A DNA stretch of 32,734 bases, taken from NCBI GenBank assembly GCA_000708835.1, contig DF237738.1:1-32734 (forward strand), in the 5' to 3' direction. The position numbers were made by a program, and so were the translations under genes. This document shows, in pieces, positions 3,624-23,961 of this stretch; positions within the stretch are counted from its first letter, which is position 1; each line of letters starts with the position of its first letter. Below the pieces are notes generated by a model, which was not told the origin of the DNA, searched no databases, and saw nothing but the letters and a program-made list of their open reading frames with translations. This DNA comes from Klebsormidium nitens (taxonomy: Eukaryota > Plantae > Klebsormidiophyceae).

Positions 3624-4404
3624 ATGAAGCGCAAGGCTATGGCTTCCTGCCACCAGTTCGAGATGGGGCTGCTTTCTAGAGATTACAAGCTGCTGGAGGA
3701 CGGTCCGGAACTGCTGAGGCGGTCCTTCTGCCGCCTAGGCGTGCTGAAGGATCCAACAATGGGGAAGCTCAGCAAATTTGACGCAGCAAAGCATCCCAGT
3801 ATGGCTCTTGCACAATTCATACAGCGAGTGCCAACTTACACGACTTTCACCCCTGCATGTGGCCCCATAGCTGCAATTTACGTGAGGAGGGCATGCCTTC
3901 CAAGGGGCGATCACCTAGTTCCATCAGCTCAGAACGTGCACAGAGTACTCCTTACTGCTTTACTTCTGGCGACGAAGTTCCTGGACGACGAGTGAGTGTT
4001 CCTCCCCCATCATTCAACCCTATGCTGGCTATCATCCATTCACAAAGGCTTGCACATGCATGCAAATAGTTTCAACATTTACCCCTCTCTTCTCTCCCTG
4101 CAGCCACGATCGCAACGGCCAATTTGCCAAAATTGGAGGCATTACGCTCGAAGAGATGAATGAGCTGGAGATCGACCTCCTCATCCGTTTGGACCATCGC
4201 CTGAACGTTCAGGTCCTAGAGCTGGAGCTGCTTCTGACTCAGCTCGAGCAGGTAGACCCCGTAGAAGTAGAAGAGGTAGTTGACCAGTCAGGTCGCACAG
4301 AGGAGGCCTTTCGAGAGTTCAAAAGGATCACAGCTAGGCGGTGCCGGCCCCTAGGGCTGAGGCTGAATCAGGCAAGAGGCGCTCGTTTCGTCCCAACCTG
4401 TTGA
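3624..4404 (+). CDS. PHO80/CYCU (P-type) cyclin; two exons (3624-3991, 4104-4404), 222 aa
   Basis: NVHRVLLTALLLATKFLDD joins in frame to DHDRNGQFAKIGGITLEEMNELEIDLL across a GTGAGT...CTCCCTGCAG intron (3992-4103). Confidence 0.85.
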
Positions 4405-6039: not shown

Positions 6040-6408
6040 CTACATATTATCTGCCGATGGGGTCAGATCATACCGAGATCTCAGATCATCGACTAACTCA
6101 TCCCATGCGCCCCATGCAACATAACCACCACTGTCGGCACGTAACTGGAGAATAGTCCGCAGCACGTGGTCATGAAAGCTCTGCCTTCCTGTAGCGTCCT
6201 GTGGTATGCACTCGGCATATGAGGGGTCTCGAAAAACTCTTTCGACCTCTTTTTTCAGAATGCGTTCGAGGTCCCGTGCCGGTATGAAAGTCGCCTTACC
6301 CTCCCTGACGAGCAGACGCCACATGCCGTTGGCCACCTGTTCGGCCAGCCCGATTTGGTTGCTAGAGAGTATCGTAGATGTATCTCGAAACACGGGGGCC
6401 AAAGACAT
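6040..6408 (-). CDS. Hypothetical protein (122 aa)
   Basis: ATG-started ORF tightly packed with its neighbours; no recognised motif. Confidence 0.55.
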   Translation of the reverse strand: MSLAPVFRDTSTILSSNQIGLAEQVANGMWRLLVREGKATFIPARDLERILKKEVERVFRDPSYAECIPQDATGRQSFHDHVLRTILQLRADSGGYVAWGAWDELVDDLRSRYDLTPSADNM

Positions 6409-6463
6409 GCTCTGCTTTCTGCGATCGAAATGTGCTACATTTTTTCCGCACAGGCTTCATAGC

Positions 6464-6715
6464 ATGGCTCTGAAGACTGTGGCAGTCAGGCAGCGCGACG
6501 CGGCGTTGCGCCTGTGTGACCATGTTGTGCAGGCGTTGGAGGTGCACGACGCTTCTTCTGATGAGATGATTTCGGAAGGCTCGCCGATCAATAGGTCCGG
6601 TGAAGGTCCGGTTGTCACTTCACTGACAAAGATTGCCGACCTTAAAGGTCGGTCTTTCGTACTGACCAAACGCGGATTTGAGCAGACCGCCGCGGAGGAT
6701 TTGAAGCGCACGTGA
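6464..6715 (+). CDS. Hypothetical 83-aa ORF whose last 25 codons derive from a primase-helicase C-terminal remnant
   Basis: The C-terminus DLKGRSFVLTKRGFEQ matches the primase C-terminus DLKARAFGIALTKRGFQQ (22600 onward). Confidence 0.4.
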   Translation: MALKTVAVRQRDAALRLCDHVVQALEVHDASSDEMISEGSPINRSGEGPVVTSLTKIADLKGRSFVLTKRGFEQTAAEDLKRT

Positions 6716-7929
6716 GTCGCGCGTACGAATACTTACGGTTATGTTCCCTGGTAGAGTAGGTATAATTCAAAGATGGTGAAGAAGCCATCGCAGACCAAAA
6801 ATGCGATTTACTTGAGGGAGCTGAGGGCCAAGGCAAAGGCAGCCAAGGGTCCCAAGCCTCAGAGGCCTCTCATCCCACCACCCCAGGGTGCTGAAGCCAC
6901 GACGCTATGGAAGCAGCACCACGCCTACCAGACCTACTATGGCAGGCCCGATGGGCAGATCTGGAGCGCCAAGCTCGGCAAGGTCCTCCAAGGTACGTTG
7001 CACCCCAACGGCTACAATCTCATCAACATCGACGGGAAGATGGTCAGGAGGTCCCGTTTCAACCTGTCCCTCTCCCAAGGGAGAGCCATCGGGGAGGGCA
7101 TGGAGTGCGACCATATCGTCCCCATCAGTAGAGGAGGTGGGGACGCCTGGTCCAACCTGCAGGAGCTCACGAAGGAGGCTCACAGGCGCAAGACGGCCCT
7201 GGACAACCCTGAGGCAGGTACGAAGCGTGGGATCACCATGGGCGTTCCCATCATCGCGAGCCACGCGGCCACCGGGGACGATACCCGCTTCGATTCGGTG
7301 ATTGCGGCGGCCAGAGAGCTGAAAATCCATCACGTATTCATCGAACGGTCTCTGAGGGTGAGACGATCAGGGGTGACTACGTCTTCTCATATACCCCGGA
7401 GCACCTGGCCGAGCAGGCCGACCTTCCTGGCGAGAGGTGGCTGGAGGCCGTCAGCAGCTGGGGCCTGCTCCCCAAGATCAGGGCCAGCGACCGCGGTAGG
7501 ATCCAAGACTCCAGAAGGAGGCGGAGCTACGGCTGTGACAAGCACGGTTACAAGGTGTTTGGGGCCGCGATCGATAAGAAGAATAGGGACCTCAAGGTGC
7601 ACGACGTCATCGCGAGGACCTTCCTCGAACCCCCTCCCTCTTCGGAGCATACACCCGACCACATCAACGGAGACCCCTCCGACAACCGCGTGGAGAATTT
7701 GCGCTGGGCCACTCCGACGGAGCAAGGCCGGAATAAGAGTAATAATCGCCGCGTCATCCAGCTGGATTCGGTCACCGGACATCACTTGGTGGTCTTCGGA
7801 AGCATAGCGGAGGCCGCAGAGGCCGTTCGGATTTCAGAGAGCAATATTCGCGCTGTAGCAGGAGGCCTTAAACGCATTGCTGGCGGATTCAAGTGGATTT
7901 ACTTAGAGGCACTTCACACTTAGGGACAT
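6638..7929 (+). mobile_element. Double-HNH cassette copy 1 (primase remnant + 55-bp leader + HNH gene + CTTAGGGACAT)
   Basis: Leader 6718-6772 is 52/55 identical to 22731-22785. The terminal 11-mer is at 7919-7929. Confidence 0.75.
6773..7923 (+). pseudogene. Tandem double-HNH endonuclease, frameshifted at about 7355
   Basis: Paralog of 16644-17777 and 22786-23910. It reads CTGAGGGT where copy 3 has CTGAAGGGT (1-bp deletion); the rest of the protein is in the next frame. Confidence 0.9.
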
Positions 7930-7980
7930 AGACAACCATGATGCCACAATATGATTGATGATGTATTAAAAGAATAGTAT

Positions 7981-12477: not shown

Positions 12478-12903
12478 ATGTCCATAGACGTAGGCGCCCT
12501 TTTAAACAATGTAAACAGTTTCAGGAGGAGTCACAGTGCCCCAGCAGTGCAGTGGGATGCAGGCATCGCCTCCGTATCTCAGGCCTGGGCCGACCGTAAG
12601 AGATATGCCCACAGCGGTACTTCGAATTACGGAGAAAACCTCGCAAAGGTCTGGGCCAAGGAGGCTGACTTCAAGACCGCAATCTCACTGTGGGCAAAAG
12701 AATTGGACGCGTACAACTATGATTCTCCTAGTTTCAGTCCGACGACGGGTCATGGGACGGCGCTGGTCTGGAAATCGAGTACTAATATCGGCGCGGGTGT
12801 GTCTCAGCTGGCGGACGGATCTTATTTCTACGTCATGAACTTTGCACCACCAGGAAACGTGAGAAGTCAAGAGCTCTTTAGGCAGAATGTGACGCAAAAA
12901 TAA
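12478..12903 (+). CDS. CAP/SCP (PR-1/GAPR-1-like) domain protein
   Basis: Motifs N.FR..H.AP.V.WD, YGENLA, W..E...Y.Y, GHGTALVWK and Y.PPGN (here FAPPGN). Confidence 0.9.
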   Translation: MSIDVGALLNNVNSFRRSHSAPAVQWDAGIASVSQAWADRKRYAHSGTSNYGENLAKVWAKEADFKTAISLWAKELDAYNYDSPSFSPTTGHGTALVWKSSTNIGAGVSQLADGSYFYVMNFAPPGNVRSQELFRQNVTQK

Positions 12904-13957: not shown

Positions 13958-15709
13958 ATGAACGTCCTCGTCCTACTGCTTGCTGGTCAGATTTGTTTAG
14001 GGCAACTCAGCTCAGCTCACCCGAGCATCGATTATCAGTCTGCCCTCTCGACGGGCTTACTATTTCTCGACGCGCAGCGAAGCGGGAAGCTCCCTCCGGA
14101 GCAACCGATCCCTTGGCGCAGTGACTCTTGCCTCGGCGACGGCGCTGATCACGGCATCGACCTGACGCAGGGCTATTTCGACTCTGGAGACTTTTGCCTC
14201 TTCGGCCTCCCTCTCGCCTACACCGTGACCATGCTCTCGTACGGTTTGGTAGAGTATGGCACGTTGTATGGCCCCAACTACGCGCCGGCTTCCGACGCCG
14301 TCCGGTGGGGCACTGACTGGTTGATAAAGGCGCACGCATCCCCCAATGAGCTTTACGTACAGGTGGGAGACGGCAACATAGACCATAAATGCTGGCAAAG
14401 GCCCGAGAACCTGACCACACCGAGACCTTCTTTCGCAGTGAACGTCACCAGTCCAGGAACGGAACCTGCAGCAGAGGCCGCAGCGGCCCTCGCTGCGGCA
14501 TCGATTGTCTTCAGAACGTCGGACCCTGCATACTCTCAGACCTTGCTGGTTCAAGCCGCGCACCTGTTCCAATTTGCAGACAAGTACCGTTTAACTTACG
14601 CGGTTTCGGTGCCTCAGGCAGCAGCCTTTTACAACTCCTACTCTGGTTACGGCGACGAGCTCCTGTGGGCTTCGGCCTGGCTGTTCAGAGCCACGTCCGA
14701 TCCGGTCTACCTCCGGTATGCAACCGGCCCGAATTTCGCTGACCCGTCGCTGGGGTGGCAAAACGCCGTCACCGAATTCAGCTGGGACAGCAAGCTAGCG
14801 GGAGCGGTCGTTCTCTGGAGCCAGCTGGCTCCACCTGGCGCTTCGGTCCCTCTCGATCATTACAGGCAGGTTGCAAACGACTTCGCATGCCATTACGTGG
14901 CACCCAACGGTGTGCAAAAGACGCCGGCTGGTCTCGCTTGGCTGCGCGAATGGAGCCCGTTGCAGTACGTCACGAGCAGTTCCTTCTTGATCGCGGCCTA
15001 TGCGGACCACCTAGGGAATGCCACCGTCACCTGTCCAGATCGGGCCTACTCTGCTTTCGAGTTGATTTTTTACAGCCAGGGGCAGGCCGACTACATATTG
15101 GGGTCGAACCCGCTCAGCTTGAGCTACATGGTCGGCTTCACTGCATCGTATCCTACCCACGTCCACCATCGCGCTGCGTCCATACCCCAAGACGGGATCG
15201 AATACACCTGCGATGGCGGCTTCCAATTCTTCTCGACACCAAAACCCAACCCTACCATCGTTGCTGGGGCGATCGTGGGCGGTCCGGATGCGTCGGATGG
15301 CTATTTGGACGTCAGGAGCGAATTTCAACAGTCTGAGCCCAGCACGTACACCTTGGGGTGCTTCCTCGGTCTCCTTGCGAGGCTGTCTGGTAGCGTTCCT
15401 GGTGTGCCGGTGGCGAGCTCTGGCGCGCCTCCCACAAGTGCGCCCCCAAGCGTCGCTCCTGGATCAGCACCTACCGCTGCCCCGAGCATTGGCGCGCCTC
15501 CCCCGAGTGTTGGGCCCGGTGCGGCACCTACACCGGTACCTAGCGCAAGCGCCTCGGCCCCAAGCGTCGCTCCTGGATCAGCACCTACGAGAGTTCCTAG
15601 CGCGCCCCCAAGTGTTGCTCCTCCCAGCGCGGCACCTACGCCGGTGCCTAGTGCAAGCGTAGGTCCTCCTGGGTTTGTACAATGTATGTGTGCTTGCAAC
15701 GGATTTTGA
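13958..15709 (+). CDS. Plant-type GH9 endo-1,4-beta-glucanase with signal peptide and Pro/Ser/Ala-rich tail
   Basis: Motifs LFLDAQRSGKLP, GYFDSGD, LYVQVGDG..DH.CW.RPE, YGDELLWA, SWDSK, HHR and SEPST. Intronless. Confidence 0.95.
   Translation: MNVLVLLLAGQICLGQLSSAHPSIDYQSALSTGLLFLDAQRSGKLPPEQPIPWRSDSCLGDGADHGIDLTQGYFDSGDFCLFGLPLAYTVTMLSYGLVEYGTLYGPNYAPASDAVRWGTDWLIKAHASPNELYVQVGDGNIDHKCWQRPENLTTPRPSFAVNVTSPGTEPAAEAAAALAAASIVFRTSDPAYSQTLLVQAAHLFQFADKYRLTYAVSVPQAAAFYNSYSGYGDELLWASAWLFRATSDPVYLRYATGPNFADPSLGWQNAVTEFSWDSKLAGAVVLWSQLAPPGASVPLDHYRQVANDFACHYVAPNGVQKTPAGLAWLREWSPLQYVTSSSFLIAAYADHLGNATVTCPDRAYSAFELIFYSQGQADYILGSNPLSLSYMVGFTASYPTHVHHRAASIPQDGIEYTCDGGFQFFSTPKPNPTIVAGAIVGGPDASDGYLDVRSEFQQSEPSTYTLGCFLGLLARLSGSVPGVPVASSGAPPTSAPPSVAPGSAPTAAPSIGAPPPSVGPGAAPTPVPSASASAPSVAPGSAPTRVPSAPPSVAPPSAAPTPVPSASVGPPGFVQCMCACNGF
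15430..15670 (+). repeat. Degenerate APPSV(A/G)PGSAPT repeats in the GH9 tail
   Basis: CCAAGCGTCGCTCCTGGATCAGCACCTAC occurs twice, with related variants. Boundaries are approximate. Confidence 0.8.
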
Positions 15710-15792
15710 TGGGCCACGGATACGGACCCAAACAACAGCGATTGAAAAGTGCGTCCGTTGCACTAGAAATATTGTGCACGTATATACAAGGT

Positions 15793-16647
15793 ATGGTGTG
15801 TGTGCCTTCTATTAGTACGTTTGCGGCCGAGCGGGGCATTACTCGCTCGTCCATGGAGACTATGCTCAACATGTTCAATTCTGACGACTTCCCCCGGATT
15901 CGGATATCTGATTTGGACCTCTACGTGTGTGCTATGACGCACAAGAGCACGTTGAAAGAGTACTCTGCAGCCCAAGGCTCCAACGAGAGACTCGAGCTCT
16001 TGGGCGACAGCGTATTAGGATTGATCGTCACAAAGTACATATTCGATAGGTACACCGGTGAAGATGAGGGGTTTATGACCAGGATTCGCACCAAATTGGT
16101 ATGCGGTGAGGCGTTGTCGGCGTGGGCCTTGAAGCTCGGGCTTCAGGAATTCTTGATGATGAATTCCAAGGCCCTTCAACGGCAGTGGAACTTGAACCCG
16201 AGCAAGCTTGAGGATGCTTTCGAGGCCTTGGTCGGAGCCTTATTCGAAGACTGTGGGATCTCAGCATGTCGCAATTTCATTTACAATCTTCTGAAACGCG
16301 TAGATTTCGTGGAGGTGGAACGAGACACGAATTGGAAGGAGTCTCTGATGCGGCACCTCCAGGGAATGTACGCAAACATGTCTAGTAACAATATCGGGCA
16401 GGACATGTTTACGCCGATGTATGCCGTGGAGGACTTTGGAGGAGACGGCAACGACGTGAAACAATTTCGCGTGAGTGTGAGCATAGGTGGGAGGGTTTTT
16501 GGCCGCGGAATCGATCGTAAGAAGAAGGCAGCGGAGCAGATGGCAGCACATTCTGCACTTTGCCAGATTACTGAAAGCGGACGTCTCCCGCTATATTCCA
16601 ACAAATCGACCCTCCGAGTTCCCAATCTCGGTATAGTATGTCCCTAA
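15793..16647 (+). CDS. rnc: Ribonuclease III with dsRNA-binding domain
   Basis: Signature NERLELLGDSVLG, EGFMTRIRTKLV, DAFEALVGA and dsRBD GRG..KKAAEQMAA. The start codon is uncertain. Confidence 0.93.
   Translation: MVCVPSISTFAAERGITRSSMETMLNMFNSDDFPRIRISDLDLYVCAMTHKSTLKEYSAAQGSNERLELLGDSVLGLIVTKYIFDRYTGEDEGFMTRIRTKLVCGEALSAWALKLGLQEFLMMNSKALQRQWNLNPSKLEDAFEALVGALFEDCGISACRNFIYNLLKRVDFVEVERDTNWKESLMRHLQGMYANMSSNNIGQDMFTPMYAVEDFGGDGNDVKQFRVSVSIGGRVFGRGIDRKKKAAEQMAAHSALCQITESGRLPLYSNKSTLRVPNLGIVCP
16559..16634 (+). repeat. 76-bp direct repeat, copy A (inside the RNase III 3' end)
   Basis: 70/76 identical to 17873-17948. Confidence 0.95.
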
Positions 16648-17872
16648 GTGTGGAGTGCCTCTGAATAAATCCACTTAAATCCGCCGGTAGCGAGTCGGCG
16701 GCCCGCTGCTACATTGCCGATATTACTTGCAAATATCCCAAGAGCCTCTGCGGCCTCAGCGATGGTACCAAAGACCGCCAACTGCGCTCCGGTGATCAGA
16801 TCCAGCTGGATAACGCTGCGATTTGACTTCTGATTCCTGCCTTGTTCCGTCGGAGTGCCCCAGCGCAAATTCTCTGAGCGGTTGTCGGACCGATCTCCGT
16901 TGATGTGGTCGGGAGTATGCTCCGACGAGGGAGGGGGCTCGAGGAAGGTCCTGGCGATCACGTCGTGCACCTTGAGGTCCCTCTCATTCTTATCGATCGT
17001 GGCCGAAAATCGCTTGTAGCCGTGCTGATCTCTGCCGTAGCTCCGCCTTCCTCTGGATTCCTGGATCCTACCGCGGTTGCTGGCCCTGATATTGGGGACG
17101 AGACCCCAGCTGCTGACGGCCTCCAGCCACGTCTCGCCGGGCAGGTCGGCCTGTTCGGCCAGGTGCTCCGGAGTATATGAGAAGACGTAGTCGCCCCTGC
17201 TCGTCAGGCCATTCAGATACCTATCGATGACAGTGTGGTGGATTTTGAGCTCTCTGACCGCATCACGAACCGAATTGAAGCTGGTCTCGACTCCGGTAAC
17301 CACGTGGCGCGCGACGATGGGGATGCCCGTGGTGATGCCCGACTTCTTGCCCGCGTCGGGGTTGTCCGAGACGGTCTTGAGCCTGTGATCCGGCTTTGAA
17401 AGCTCCTGCAGGTTGGCCCAGTCATCTCCACCTCCTCTACTGACGGGGACGATGTGGTCGCACTCCATCCCCTCCTCGATGGCGCGTCCGAGGGAGAGCG
17501 ACAGGTTGAAACGAGACCTCGGGCCGTCCTTCCCGTCGATTTTGATGTAGCCGTAGCCATCGGATCTGCTGAAACCTTCGATGACCCGGCCGGTCTTGGC
17601 GCTCCAGACCCTCCCGTCTGGTCTGCCGTAGTAGGCCGGGTAGGCGTGGTGCTGTTGCCACCCCTGGAGCACGGGTGGTGGGATCAGAGGCTTGGGACCC
17701 TTGGCTGCCTTTGCCTTGGCCCTCATCTCCCTCTGGTAGATGGCATGATTGGTCGGTGAGAGCTGCTTCTTCACCATTGTCGAATTATACCTACTCTACC
17801 AGGGAACATAACCGTAAGCATTCGTACGCACGGCTTGCGTCAGGTCTTTGAATCCGCGCTGCTCAAATTGCG
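16638..17872 (-). mobile_element. Double-HNH cassette copy 2, flanked by a 76-bp target duplication
   Basis: Leader 17778-17832 (51/55 identical to the copy 3 leader), terminal ATGTCCCTAAG at 16638-16648, primase remnant at about 17835-17880. Confidence 0.85.
16644..17777 (-). CDS. Tandem double-HNH endonuclease with NUMOD1-like modules (intact, 377 aa)
   Basis: HNH-1 is CDHIVPVSRGG..DWANLQ..H and HNH-2 is PDHINGDRSDNRSENLRW...N. Each is followed by an F.S/TI.EA...L.I helical module. Confidence 0.92.
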   Translation of the reverse strand: MVKKQLSPTNHAIYQREMRAKAKAAKGPKPLIPPPVLQGWQQHHAYPAYYGRPDGRVWSAKTGRVIEGFSRSDGYGYIKIDGKDGPRSRFNLSLSLGRAIEEGMECDHIVPVSRGGGDDWANLQELSKPDHRLKTVSDNPDAGKKSGITTGIPIVARHVVTGVETSFNSVRDAVRELKIHHTVIDRYLNGLTSRGDYVFSYTPEHLAEQADLPGETWLEAVSSWGLVPNIRASNRGRIQESRGRRSYGRDQHGYKRFSATIDKNERDLKVHDVIARTFLEPPPSSEHTPDHINGDRSDNRSENLRWGTPTEQGRNQKSNRSVIQLDLITGAQLAVFGTIAEAAEALGIFASNIGNVAAGRRLATGGFKWIYSEALHT

Positions 17873-17948
17873 TTTGTCAGATCACGGAGAGCGGACGTCT
17901 CCCGCTATATTCCAACAAATCGACCCTCCGAGTTCCCAACCTCGGCAT
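17873..17948 (+). repeat. 76-bp direct repeat, copy B (orphan RNase III 3' end abutting the ATPase stop)
   Basis: Encodes the same CQITESGRLPLYSNKSTLRVPNLGI peptide as copy A. Confidence 0.95.
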
Positions 17949-17949
17949 T

Positions 17950-18735
17950 TCACTTTGACTTGCGCACCCTGATGCCGTTGCTGGTGACAACGACCTCGTT
18001 TCTCTTTTGCAGCTCTGAATCTGCGTACGTGCGATTGTGATGTGCCCAATATGCCGGCGCCCCGATCTTGAAGTGCTCGTGGATGTCTGCCTTGTACCAG
18101 AATATTGCATCGGTCGGTTCCGTGCTCTGGACGGTGTTGTCCAACACGAGGCATTCGTGCTTGCTGGTACACGCCTTGAAGACCGCCTCAAACTGTGAGA
18201 ACGTCTTGAACACGCCAAACAGGTGGTCGTAGTACCTCTTACGGTTGGCGAGGATCGGGTCGTTGTATATGAAGACGTAATCAATGTTGGATCGGACGGG
18301 TGGAGGTATGTCCATGATGTACTGAGACGCCAAGATGACCATGAGGCCGAAATGGCGGCCATTCATGTATAGATAGCGCATGGTGTCAGACTTCATGATG
18401 TTTTGCTTGAAGAGGCAGTCATCCAGGAGGAGGAAGACGCTGGAGTCTTTGACCTTGAGTCTCGTGAGATTCTTCTGCCTGGCGATTAGTTTTTTGATGA
18501 TCTCCTCGTCGAAGGTGTCGTATATGAAACTGTCTGGTATGAACTTGCGGTAGAAGCCGTTGCCGTCCTCTGAGCCGCTTATGACGATTCCGGCTGGAAT
18601 CTGCCGCTTGTGGTACAGTATGTCGGCTATGAGGGTCGTCTTCCCGACGCCCCGTCTGCCAATGACTACGACCGTCTTGTGGTCCTGAAGCTTTGACATG
18701 TCAAACTTTTTGATGTTGAAATCGCCTGCAGCCAT
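17950..18735 (-). CDS. A32-like virion DNA packaging ATPase
   Basis: Walker A GRRGVGKT, ISGSEDGNGFY, Walker B LLLDDC, MNGRH. ATG at 18735. Confidence 0.95.
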   Translation of the reverse strand: MAAGDFNIKKFDMSKLQDHKTVVVIGRRGVGKTTLIADILYHKRQIPAGIVISGSEDGNGFYRKFIPDSFIYDTFDEEIIKKLIARQKNLTRLKVKDSSVFLLLDDCLFKQNIMKSDTMRYLYMNGRHFGLMVILASQYIMDIPPPVRSNIDYVFIYNDPILANRKRYYDHLFGVFKTFSQFEAVFKACTSKHECLVLDNTVQSTEPTDAIFWYKADIHEHFKIGAPAYWAHHNRTYADSELQKRNEVVVTSNGIRVRKSK

Positions 18736-18767
18736 GGCTTTTGGACGGAAAAAAACGGGCACACATA

Positions 18768-20010: not shown

Positions 20011-20088
20011 GTCACTGCGCAGCGCTTGAGCTTAGGGATTACGGGTACTTAGGAGGATAGTGCGCTTCAATTAAGTAACCAATTATCT

Positions 20089-22728
20089 ATGTATTTATCA
20101 GGATCCATGAACCCCACGGCGTCCATCACGGCTACGATCAGGGACCTCGCAGGGGCAGAATTCTACGCCATTCCAGTCCGCATCTACCTGTCCTCGGGCA
20201 AGAAGAAGTCGCAGTTTCCACGCACGTGGAAGAACTTGGACACCGTCTCCACTTGGAAGGCCCAGATCGCAGACGTCATCAAGGAGTGCCCGAACGCGAA
20301 CAGCGTCGCGATATTGACGGGCATCAGCGACCTGTTTGTCCTCGACGTCGACCTCATGGCCTCCGCCGGCAAGAGGTCGGGTTTCGACCTGTGGGAGGTT
20401 CTGGTCGCCGAGCATGGTTCGCCCGACACGCTCCAGGCCAAGACGGGCTCGAACGGTCGGCATTTCTACTTCCGGAGGAACGACTCTACAGGATTAACGC
20501 GCCGCCGGAATTTCGCTGGCCTGAAATTTGAACGCGAGCGGTACGCCATCGATGGAAGAGGGGAGGGCGGAGTCATCTTCGCCCCTCCCAGCAGCTACAA
20601 GGACGAGGACGGCATCACCTACTCGTACGAGTGGCAGAACGGGGACCCACACTGTGGCTGCAACCCCATGCCACAGTGGCTGATCCAGTTGGTCAACTCC
20701 CAGGGGTCGGACGAGGTGCCCCCTCTGATCGGTGGCACTCCCGACGACGAGCCGCTGTCTCCCGAGCCCATATCGGCCCCGAGGAGCCCTGTCGTTGATT
20801 AGAGTGCCATCGTGCGCGAGATGCGGCAGCTCTTGCTAGAACGGGCCGGCGATTCCACGAGCACGTTTGGCGGCACGGTAGAGCACGGCTGTCTCGGCAC
20901 GTACTACTGCTTTCGAGTACATGGGCCCAGGCAATGCTACTTTGGTCGTCAGCATTCCGGCAGCAATAACTTTAACTGCCTCAAGAGGGGCAAACGTGTC
21001 TATGTGCGGTGCCATGGCAGCGAATGCAGCCATGAACCGCCTCGCTACCTCGGAGATCTGTCCCTACAGTCCTCATTGCTCGACGCCTGCCGCGAGCCCC
21101 TGCACGATGTGGACGACTACTCGGTCCTGAACGTGCGTCAGATGCAGGGCGAGGAGCTCCGCCTGTTGATCGCCTTCCTGACAGAGAACGTAGGAGACTC
21201 CTATAGCGGTCTCGGCCGTATCTTTGGCTACGTCTTCGCCAAGGACGGCCGGATCCTGGTCACCGGGCCCAAGAAGCAGTTCTACTACTGGAACGGCCGG
21301 GTCTGGGTGCTGGACGAGTCCAACCGCGTCGTCACCACCTTCTCCTACAAGATGTCGACGCTCTTCAAGTGGTACGACACCCGACGCGATCGGCGCTTCG
21401 AGCGCAAGCTCAGCGAGAAGGGCCTCGTGAACGGGACCGAGAGTGTTGCCCAAACGGTCGCAGCCCTCGATAAGCGAGGCTCCAAGGCCATCATCAAGGC
21501 CTGCTGGGACGAGGTGGACGCCGAGCTGCCGCCGAACCGCATCAACGTCAACTCCCCCAAGGAGGCCCGAGCTTGCCTTGACTACGTCACGAGCGTCTTG
21601 TACGATCCCGAGATGATCAAGCTCATGGATTGCGACATCGACTCGGTCGGCTGTCCGAACGGCGTCCTCGACCTGAGGACGGGCATTTTGAGCTTCGCGC
21701 ACCCGAGCCAGCTCTGCACCCGCTCGACCGGCGTACGTTACATGGGGTTGAGCCACAACACGGACCGCTTCGACGCGTTCGTGATGGATCTCTTCAACTC
21801 CGACGAATCGATCGTCCGGTGGCTCCAGCTGTTCCTCGGTTACGCTCTGACAGGTCATACCAGCGAGGAGATCTTTTGCATCTGGTATGGAGCCGGGAGC
21901 AACGGCAAGAGCGCTCTCAAGATGGCTCTCCAGAAGGCGTTCGGGTCATACTACACGCCCATGAGCAAGGACTGCATCATCAAGGCCGGTGGGAAGCGGG
22001 CCGAAGGAGCCGCCTCCAGCCACCTCGTTGCCCTCAAGGGCGCTCGTCTGGCCCTATGCGACGAGTCCGAGGAGAGCCAGGTCATCAACTCCGCTTGCAT
22101 CAAAGAGATGACGGGTGGAGGTGCGGTCACCTGCCGGGAGCTCTTCCAAAAGTGCGAGAGCTTCGTGCCGACGCACGCCAACGTCCTGCTCACCAACCAC
22201 AAGCCCAGCATAGCCGACGCCGACGGCGGCCTCCTGCGCCGGGTGTCCCTCCTCCCGTTCCGAAATTCCTACAAGGTCGCGGAGGAGGTCGACCCCAACG
22301 ACCCTCACTCCAAGCCGCAGTCCACGCACCTCAAGACGTGGCTGGAGAGCTCGGAGGGAGCCGAGGAGTGCCTGGTATGGGTCGTGCGAGGCAGCGTAGA
22401 ATGGTATGCTCGCCAAAGCGCCAACCCGGCCGCGAAGGTGCTGGCTCCGCTGCCGGCTCCGATGGCGGCCGCTTTCGACGAGTACTTGCGCGAGTTTGAC
22501 GACATGCGCATGTTCTTGAAAGAGTTTTGCGACATCGGGCCGACCTTCGTCGCTCCGTCTGCGGACCTTTTGGCTCGATTCAATGCGGAGATGAATTCCG
22601 ATCTCAAGGCACGCGCCTTTGGTATCGCTTTGACCAAGAGAGGATTTCAGCAGATCGAGTTTACTGTAGATAGGATCAGGCGTCGCGGATTCAAAGGACT
22701 GAAATTGCGAGATATGGCCACGGGCTAA
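20089..22728 (+). CDS. Prim-Pol (bifunctional primase-polymerase) / D5-type SF3 helicase, interrupted by an in-frame TAG at 20800-20802
   Basis: Prim-Pol motifs LFVLDVD, TGSNGRHFYF, IDGRGEGG and APPS. D5 motifs CPNGVLDLRTG, YGAGSNGKS, LCDES, KEMTGG and TNHKP. Both ORFs are in the same frame. Confidence 0.9.
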
Positions 22729-22730
22729 TC

Positions 22731-22785
22731 CGCGCGTACGAATGCTTACGGTTATGTTCCCTGGTAGAGTAGGTATACTTCGAAG
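22731..22785 (+). promoter_or_regulatory. Conserved 55-bp HNH leader (also at 6718-6772 and 17778-17832 on the minus strand)
   Basis: 93-95% identical across the three copies, directly before the HNH ATG. The function is inferred. Confidence 0.65.
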
Positions 22786-23910
22786 ATGGTGAAGCAACAG
22801 GAGCTCTCTCAGACAAAGGCAAAGGCAGCCAATCTTCAGAGGCCTCTCATCCCACCACCCCAGGAAGAAGCCCCATCCAATCAATGGAAGCAGCATCACG
22901 TCTACCTGGCCCACTACGGCAGGCCAGACGGGCAGATTTGGAGCGCCAAGGTCGGCAGGGTCCTCGAAGGTTACGTTGACCCCGATGGCTACTACCGTAT
23001 TACAATCGATGGGAAGCAGGTCCAACGGTCGCGCTTCAACCTGGCACTCTCCCTCGGACGCGCCATCCGAGAAGGATTCGACTGCGACCACATCGTCCCC
23101 GTGAGTAGGGGAGGTGGGGACGCCTGGTCCAATCTGCAGGAGCTGACGAAGGAGGCTCACAGGCGCAAGACGGCCGCGGACAACCCCGACGCGGGCACGA
23201 AGCGGGGAATCACGATGGGCATTTGCATCATCGCACGTCACACGGGAAACGGAGTCGGGTTGCGGTTCGATTCGGTGAAAGCGGTGGAGAGAGAGCTCGG
23301 GATCAGTCACGGAGTCATCGACAGGTCTCTGAAGGGTGCGACGATCACAGGCGACTATGTCTTCTCGTACACCCCGGAGCACTTGGCCGAGCAGGCCGAT
23401 CTGCCTGGCGAGATTTGGCGAGAGGCCGTTAGCCGCCTTGGTCTGCTCCCCAATATCAAGGCCAGCGACCGCGGTAGGATCCAGGACTCCAGAAGGAGGC
23501 GGAGCTACGGCTGCGACAAGCACGGTTACAAGGTGTTTGGGGCCGTGATCGATAAGAAGAGGGACCTCAAGGTGCACGACGTCATCGCGAGGACCTTCCT
23601 CGAACCCCCTCCCTCTTCGGAGCATACCCCCGACCACATCAACGGAGACCCATCCGACAACCGCGCCGAGAACTTGCGCTGGGCCACTGATACTGAGCAG
23701 GGCAGGAATCAGAAGTCAAATCGCCGCGTGGTGCAGCTCGATCTGATCACCGGAGAGCAGTTGGCTATCTTCGACAGTATTGCTGCAGCGGCAGAGACGG
23801 TTGGGATCTCTGCGTGCACTATCACGAATGTAGCAGGGGGGCGCGCCCTTACTGCCCGAGGTTTTGCGTGGCGGTATGCCGAGGATGCACTGCGCAGCGC
23901 TGTTGCTTAG
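22786..23910 (+). CDS. Tandem double-HNH endonuclease (intact, 374 aa), copy 3
   Basis: Same two HNH motifs as copies 1 and 2; ends in CTTAGGGACAT (23906-23916). Confidence 0.92.
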   Translation: MVKQQELSQTKAKAANLQRPLIPPPQEEAPSNQWKQHHVYLAHYGRPDGQIWSAKVGRVLEGYVDPDGYYRITIDGKQVQRSRFNLALSLGRAIREGFDCDHIVPVSRGGGDAWSNLQELTKEAHRRKTAADNPDAGTKRGITMGICIIARHTGNGVGLRFDSVKAVERELGISHGVIDRSLKGATITGDYVFSYTPEHLAEQADLPGEIWREAVSRLGLLPNIKASDRGRIQDSRRRRSYGCDKHGYKVFGAVIDKKRDLKVHDVIARTFLEPPPSSEHTPDHINGDPSDNRAENLRWATDTEQGRNQKSNRRVVQLDLITGEQLAIFDSIAAAAETVGISACTITNVAGGRALTARGFAWRYAEDALRSAVA

Positions 23911-23961
23911 GGACATGCGATACTTACGGAGATGTTAGGAGATCTAGAATAGTCAAGAATC

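Follow-up and report, generated by a model that had tools for sequence, protein, structure and literature searches.

We analyzed a 32,734-nt stretch of DNA from the genome assembly of the green alga Klebsormidium nitens (contig DF237738.1; this whole stretch is hereafter the window), in which the gene for a free-standing HNH endonuclease, HNH2, lies between an RNase III gene and an A32-like packaging ATPase gene (Table 1). Pfam matches among the 29 window proteins scanned included markers of nucleocytoplasmic large DNA viruses (NCLDVs), namely a capsid N-terminal domain, A32 ATPase, D5 helicase, RNase III, NAD-dependent ligase, and YqaJ nuclease. This predicted gene content marks the window as DNA of NCLDV type, derived from a giant virus associated with K. 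nitens. Passages of the published work on the Klebsormidium assembly describe NCLDV-dominated contigs, or several distinct NCLDV inserts, that likely represent more than one virus (PMC5294986). The RNase III gene likely starts at a codon downstream of its first ATG, and its final codons (IVCP*) come from the terminus of the HNH element.

Table 1. Features of the HNH2 locus and of the related HNH copies in the window (X5, X6, P0121, and P0122 are described in the text).
Feature	Position	Strand	Description
RNase III gene	15682..16647	+	RNase III and dsRBD domains; open reading frame; Pfam PF00636, PF14622, PF00035
Polymorphic patch	16530..16587	+	All 11 listed differences (of 13) between X5 and copy A; 9 at third positions; 8 of 10 changed codons silent
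Copy A	16559..16634	+	Working RNase III 3' end joined to HNH terminus; core 16576-16625
Element 3' terminus	16633..16660	-	CTTAGGGAC motif common to HNH1 and HNH3; 18-21 bp shorter than in X6, P0121, and P0122
HNH2	16644..17777	-	377 aa, free-standing; two tandem I-HmuI-like HNH + NUMOD modules, both motifs intact
Non-coding leader	17778..17835	-	Common to the three HNH copies; likely promoter region; without RNA fold signal
D5 helicase 3'-end remnant	17836..17880	-	On the 5' side of the element; ends in short microhomology with RNase III at 17873-17880
Copy B proper	17878..17949	+	Last ~23 codons of a second RNase III allele, detached from the gene; abuts the ATPase stop
A32-like packaging ATPase	17950..18762	-	Convergent with RNase III; open reading frame, Pfam, relatives
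HNH1 paralogue	6630..7945	+	D5 remnant at ~6630-6690; 1-bp frameshift; without flanking duplication
D5 helicase, then HNH3	20812..23935	+	HNH3 at 22786-23910; without flanking gene-end duplication

HNH2 matched the Pfam families HNH, HNH_3, NUMOD1, and I-HmuI_NUMOD-like, and its best structure-sequence match was 1U3E (I-HmuI, E 7e-07). It is a separate open reading frame on the strand opposite to RNase III, outside introns and inteins, and the window contained no Rfam match at gathering score. The combination of HNH and NUMOD modules, an open reading frame of its own, and both occupied and empty alleles (the empty one by protein only) is that of a homing endonuclease. We class HNH2, from its sequence, as an I-HmuI/MobE-type free-standing HNH homing endonuclease with putative cleavage activity.

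The 3' end of the RNase III gene occurs on both sides of HNH2. An earlier annotation of the DNA (the sequence-only reading) had reported this 76-bp duplication; 16559-16634 and 17873-17948 align without gaps at an offset of 1314 bp. Codon-wise comparison bore out its six mismatches (16563, 16569, 16572, 16575, 16626, and 16632), each at a third codon position and silent in the RNase III frame, around a 50-bp core (16576-16625) in which copies A and B are identical. A random substitution here is silent with a probability of 0.26-0.32, so that six silent changes out of six have p = 0.0003-0.001, and five out of five p = 0.001-0.003. The chance that six third-position changes placed at random spare an identical stretch of 50 bp is 0.003, a post hoc value. 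Copy A reads ...NLGIVCP*, and copy B reads ...NLGISL*, running into the ATPase stop. Relatives at 57-60% identity keep the repeated peptide, which argues that it is real coding sequence, and the differences between A and B are probably silent because both copies were coding until recently. A minus-strand reading of the repeat shares the wobble positions but meets a stop in copy B; it was ruled out because relatives conserve the plus-strand tail. Host deamination of CpG sites was also rejected: none of the five sites private to A lies in a CpG as printed, and a silent-only pattern is not expected from this process. RNA structure did not offer a convincing explanation of the conserved core (z of -0.04 to -1.98 over five folds).

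Two of the silent differences proposed earlier are better explained by the element. The TGC/TGT difference at 16563 had been counted among the silent mismatches, but the site coincides with the start of the D5 helicase remnant, and the HNH2 and HNH1 remnants align across it, so it is likely a junction letter belonging to the element. Neither the remnant nor the microhomology at this junction had been noted in the sequence-only reading. Since the remnant covers the equivalent site, copy B proper begins at 17878, at the short microhomology, and is likely about 69-72 bp long once the junction letter is excluded. The next codon, ATA/ATT, had been counted as a further silent change. This match is likely coincidental, because the IVCP tail is the element terminus in several strains and copy A lacks six to seven codons of it; four other sequences (P0001, P0121, P0122, and X5) have ATG or Met after NLG.

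The tails of related RNase III proteins point to the origin of both gene ends. Two near-identical proteins, P0121 and P0122, end in NLG-MQSHHGS-IVCP, and X6, a 151-nt record, reads NLG-QSHHGS-IVCP; the 3' end of HNH1 contains a 10-letter piece of the (M)QSHHGS spacer. The IVCP tail is thus the element terminus in several strains, from which copy A has lost the six to seven codons of (M)QSHHGS, and the earlier proposal that RNase III ends in codons supplied by the element holds. Another protein, P0001, is 96% identical to the window's RNase III and ends in NLG-MGHPNV-TLTCAP*. In the six frames of the window, TLTCAP* occurs once, as the antisense 3' end of the ATPase, at 17952, which indicates that RNase III abuts the ATPase in the P0001 strain and agrees with the suggestion that copy B is the original gene end. 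P0001 would then represent the HNH-free allele, and copy B with the ATPase stop would be the same junction with 13 bases fewer. Between P0122 and P0001, contig size differs by 1,307 bp, near the size of the element, which is no more than suggestive. The C-terminus of the ATPase has Val in the window and in P0274, and Thr in P0154 and P0275, whose contigs are sized as those of the HNH-linked RNase III proteins; P0274 probably belongs to the HNH-free genotype. Near-identical strains carry at least four different RNase III tails. Comparing RNase III alleles and sites, as had been recommended, thus gave occupied sites in X5, X6, P0121, and P0122 and an empty site in P0001 (protein only).

DNA of the locus from an independent run of another study (X5, a single contig of 5,887 bp) suggests that the HNH insertion preceded the duplication. 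X5 has RNase III, HNH, and ATPase in the order of the window at about 90% identity, and just one piece of its contig aligns to copy A. Copy B is absent from X5 at 80% likeness or more, and 114 unlike letters stand at 17859-17949. At 16632-16660, the last HNH codons and the terminus are deleted in X5, and its RNase III has another tail. Because X5 has HNH without copy B, and P0121 and P0122 share the HNH-derived tail, HNH is likely older than the duplication. A further record, X7, covers the ATPase only. No DNA of a close relative turned up in a viral contig collection, which gave no locus for RNase III, the 50-bp core pattern, or HNH2, or in metagenome contigs, which gave no match to the core and only distant RNase III loci (29-42% identity, best 80 of 277).

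These observations bear on the possibility that the repeat is an old target-site duplication that arose when the element first inserted, and that another allele has since replaced copy A. The five letters private to A, and the position of A within a divergent patch, would fit such a history. The IVCP terminus is common to P0121, P0122, and X6, and the likely positional counterpart of HNH2 (P0128, with an altered first motif) is just 88% identical overall, which makes the insertion old, while copy B is undecayed: B has neither a non-silent change nor an indel in ~70 bp, although the insertion is shared with strains diverged by ~10%. With copy B missing from X5 at the same threshold, and with no flanking duplication at HNH1 or HNH3 (183 and 66 of 300 shuffles, respectively, scored as well), we regard this history as very unlikely. 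The sequence-only reading had likewise discounted a neutrally decaying target-site duplication on the basis of the silent-only differences. Nor does the element look like a transposon: direct repeats flank one of the three window copies and are absent from X5 at 80% likeness or more. We found no transposase or integrase family among the 29 scanned proteins, and of 129 repeat pairs the 25 longest included no terminal inverted repeat.

Strain variation in the letters of the repeat was concentrated in a short patch of RNase III. The comparison of X5 with copy A listed 11 of 13 differences with their positions. In the working RNase III of X5, the letters at 16569, 16572, and 16575 are those of B, the one at 16563 is that of A, and the one at 16632 is neither. 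The state of X5 at 16626 is not among the differences listed; X6 has B's letter there (AAC). At the right edge, A has AAT and GGT, X6 has AAC and GGG, and B has AAC. None of the listed differences between X5 and A falls in 16400-16529 or 16588-16625, one lies inside the core, and none of 200,000 random placements was as tightly clustered. Two of the changes in P0001 fall within the same five codons of the patch. The sequence-only reading had noted the clustering of mismatches at the edges of the repeat. This is not diagnostic: X5, an independent allele, likewise departs from A chiefly around the left edge and outside the repeat, so the edge pattern alone does not show crossovers in the core. 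The "recoded" gene end proposed earlier was likewise overstated, the letters being natural variation among strains. The patch may be a nuclease target under selection for escape, or a conversion tract. Polymorphic target regions that shield the genome bearing the homing endonuclease have been proposed for MobE (PMC2790892). Over 16400-16529, the window agrees with X5 at all listed sites; from 16530 on, through HNH, it diverges.

Copies A and B are very probably alleles of two virus strains: B's letters occur in the coding gene of X5 at three of the four left-edge sites, and AAC occurs in X6. We further propose, with a probability of roughly 0.55, that copy B was left behind by a one-sided homing event. 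In this scheme, an HNH copy that brought along part of the D5 gene end, next to which it had formerly lain, would have inserted between the RNase III and ATPase genes and made no long duplication there. A genome with this element and allele A would later have met an HNH-free genome with allele B, before or during entry into the alga, and the HNH-free RNase III would have been broken near codon position 16564, likely by HNH. Repair of the left end by homology would have copied allele A, the stop, and HNH. The right end would have been joined by microhomology to the D5 remnant rather than by ATPase homology, leaving the recipient's last ~23 codons in place. The recipient would thus have contributed the left flank (X5-like to 16529), copy B, and the ATPase end, and the donor would have contributed 16530-17877. 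Divergence that starts at 16530, after an X5-like flank, is what an incoming 16530-17877 between an X5-like flank and an X5-like B would produce. One such event would account for most features of the locus. Judging from the sequence, a crossover between the two cores would regenerate the gene without HNH and set a circle free.

Several points weigh against one-sided homing. X5 combines HNH with B-like letters, so these letters alone do not mark an HNH-free genome; the lost HNH 3' end of X5 and the altered first motif of P0128 may excuse this exception. The 114 unlike letters of X5 could hold an RNase III copy less than 80% alike, and the X5 ATPase differs from the window at 54 of ~950 bases, so the right flank is not simply X5-like. 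P0001, the protein that represents the HNH-free allele, departs from the reading of copy B by Ile for Val in the core and by 13 extra bases before the ATPase stop. Single-letter errors are possible in X5 (depth 2.83) and X6 (depth 3). Cleavage of the RNase III end by HNH2 and excess inheritance of the gene are putative, as is the plausible immunity of one allele, with the patch as indirect evidence only. The D5 remnant suggests that the first target of the family was D5, not RNase III. Finally, a His at 16549 is common to A's flank and P0001, which fits the reciprocal arrangement considered next.

The sequence-only reading had favored integration, by single crossover, of a circle carrying another strain's allele. 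One copy is indeed the other strain's allele by the X5 letters at 16569, 16572, and 16575, but the circle and the single crossover are hypothetical, and the 29 scanned proteins include no integrase. In this model, a circle or donor segment, consisting of B's left edge, the core, A's right edge, and HNH and cut at a CAG microhomology from an HNH-bearing strain, would have recombined within the core of an HNH-free allele. Copy A would then combine the recipient's left with the donor's right, and copy B the donor's left with the recipient's right. The identical core between mismatches would follow naturally, B's left edge agrees with the HNH-bearing X5 at three sites, and the outer flanks each share a residue with the inferred HNH-free genotype (His with P0001 in RNase III, Val with P0274 in the ATPase). 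The left edges fit the reciprocal hybrids expected of attL/attR repeats, but the right edges do not: A's right edge (AAT, GGT) is unlike HNH-bearing X6 (AAC, GGG), while B's has AAC. The His is likely ancestral, with distant relatives having Arg, and the absence of listed X5 differences in 16400-16529 is unexpected for a left flank from the other strain. We consider this arrangement unlikely, even though contig graphs cannot tell an integrated element from an empty site plus a circle. Contig depths on the HNH and ATPase sides (11.2 versus 11.3 in X1 and 11.7 versus 17.6 in X3) at face value do not fit a free circle or an empty fraction, but they are inconsistent among X1, X3, and X4, all assembled contigs of sample S1, the likely source of the DNA, and bear neither for nor against excision.

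The same contigs address whether the locus is an assembly chimera, in which two co-occurring viral inserts were joined through the 50-bp core. Such inserts are plausible given the several distinct NCLDV inserts described for the alga's assembly (PMC5294986), and none of the contigs listed spans the core with at least 31 letters on each side. Yet all four junctions occur in S1 runs (A-left, A-right, and B-right in X1; B-left and B-right in X4; A-right and B-right in X3), including that from the D5 remnant to B, so B-left is real DNA whatever the phasing. No second near-identical RNase III or ATPase was found in X1 either, and we judge a chimera highly improbable. Alternatively, an HNH-bearing genome (left) may have joined an HNH-free genome (right) by plain illegitimate crossover where the D5 remnant and RNase III share microhomology, without cutting by HNH. 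This would give the same local structure, for which microhomology suffices, in genomes that are evidently mosaic, as the identity of HNH2 to P0128 shows: it is 98% over residues 101-205 and 71% over 38-100, where P0133 is closer (83%). A plain crossover leaves unexplained why the junction lies inside the patch, where 7 of 11 consecutive third positions separate X5 from the window and two of the P0001 changes fall, and why the left flank is X5-like. We therefore find it improbable, and return to one-sided homing as the preferred account.

The other HNH copies support an origin of the element away from RNase III. The three HNH copies of the window share the 5' leader and the 3' motif. None of 1000 shuffles reached the score of the HNH2 D5 remnant against D5 or against the HNH1 remnant, and 1 of 1000 was as good for the remnant at HNH1. 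The loose ends of X5 and X6, as read over 30 letters each, show a D5 C-terminus ahead of the HNH leader. The D5-adjacent site of HNH3 is likely the ancestral position of the family. A search of 7,666 candidates gave 26 proteins, 24 of them at 62-88% identity and several per contig-size class; 23 of these 24 are from JGI, and one is the window's own HNH1 model. The least conserved positions of HNH2 include residues 69-84 and 249-267, which by their sequence are likely DNA-contact strands.

Some additional features touch the HNH copies and their neighbors. HNH1 (6773-7923) is split by a 1-bp deletion that a public gene model (P0141) bridges, and another model, P0276, joins the ATPase and HNH2; both are likely annotation artefacts. 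The open reading frame at 6206-6715 has as its C-terminus the D5 remnant before HNH1 (6630-6715), which agrees with D5 at 12 of 19 residues. A 9-bp gap separates the primase (Prim-Pol, PF09250) from the D5 helicase (20089-22728); they are two neighboring open reading frames, not a single gene. Just ahead of the primase gene, a 46-bp piece (20013-20058) resembles the 3' end of HNH3 at 74%, reading ...LRSA* followed by the CTTAGGGA motif. Either a fourth HNH copy has been lost here and left this footprint, or the piece is the left-hand repeat of a cassette of 3.9 kb that comprises primase, D5, and HNH3. Elsewhere in the NCLDV-type DNA, 13958-15709 encodes a predicted endoglucanase of family GH9 (Pfam E 8e-135), whose target could be the algal cell wall and whose tail consists of Pro/Ser-rich repeats. 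A cyclin-like gene is seemingly split over two open reading frames, and there is a small CAP-domain protein (3624-4404 and 12478-12903).

The locus resembles several known systems. In fungal mitochondria, mobile endonucleases form gene hybrids at Allomyces macrogynus atp6 and at Glomus atp6, atp9, cox2, and nad3 (PMC3630166), and C-terminal duplications beside homing endonuclease genes are also known (PMC6279837). In these hybrids, the C-terminal part of a conserved gene is duplicated on either side of the endonuclease reading frame. A foreign C-terminus, the upstream copy, completes the gene; the native one is displaced and lies nearer to relatives; and the protein changes little while the DNA differs. 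A C-terminal duplication flanking the endonuclease with the upstream copy in frame is likewise present in the window, and copy B, the displaced copy, abuts the native junction and is nearer to X5 than A is (three of four left-edge sites), although X5 itself bears HNH. Unlike the fungal hybrids, the locus belongs to a giant virus, the endonuclease is an HNH rather than a GIY-YIG or LAGLIDADG enzyme and lies on the opposite strand, and the duplication is ~70 bp, 92% alike between strains, joined at D5-remnant microhomology, and found at one of three window copies. The element does not regularly carry a gene end (X5 lacks B; HNH1 and HNH3 lack duplications), so the duplication looks like a one-off outcome rather than a fixed design.

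Free-standing phage HNHs, such as T4 MobE (PMC2790892) and I-HmuI-like enzymes of Skunavirus (PMC12724721), are similarly intron-less HNH + NUMOD proteins encoded next to conserved genes; some strains have them and others lack them, and the adjacent gene contains a polymorphic patch. They differ from the window HNH, which has two tandem HNH modules and belongs to a multi-copy family at many sites per genome, and their normal intronless homing leaves no duplication. Homing in T4 can also proceed by one-sided repair with microhomology junctions, in which one end is joined by homology and the other by microhomology, as proposed here; that case was shown with engineered intron donors, whereas ours is inferred from one natural locus (PMC2988022). 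A different outcome, segmental amplification driven by a phage homing endonuclease, has been described (PMC13096335). Among NCLDVs, the Bodo saltans virus genome contains HNH endonucleases proposed to act between co-infecting viruses, but these sit in introns and inteins, and no gene-end duplication was seen in the part of that paper available (PMC5871332). Among titles and abstract openings, we found no HNH-flanking gene-end duplication in a giant virus, and our literature search found nothing joining Klebsormidium nitens, endogenous viral DNA, and HNH.

The mechanism itself is already known, and the duplication occurs at one locus only. Tentatively, and with less confidence than in one-sided homing itself, we suggest that this lineage-restricted double-HNH family (24 proteins, 62-88%) may spread by homing in Klebsormidium-associated giant viruses, its DNA-contact segments varying and recombining. 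HNH2 would cut RNase III near 16564, ~70 bp from its own insertion, and the silent changes in the 58-bp patch would be the signature of an arms race. The locus could then be a frozen product of one-sided homing whose junction marks the cut, with excision of a circle through the 50-bp core still possible. If the reading is true, intronless homing between strains of giant viruses would have left a natural record at this locus, where the alleles of donor and recipient and the predicted cut site can all be read within 1.4 kb, and the locus would extend the fungal mitochondrial gene-hybrid pattern to nucleocytoviruses. The double-HNH family, undescribed and with many diverged copies per genome, could supply endonucleases of varied specificity.

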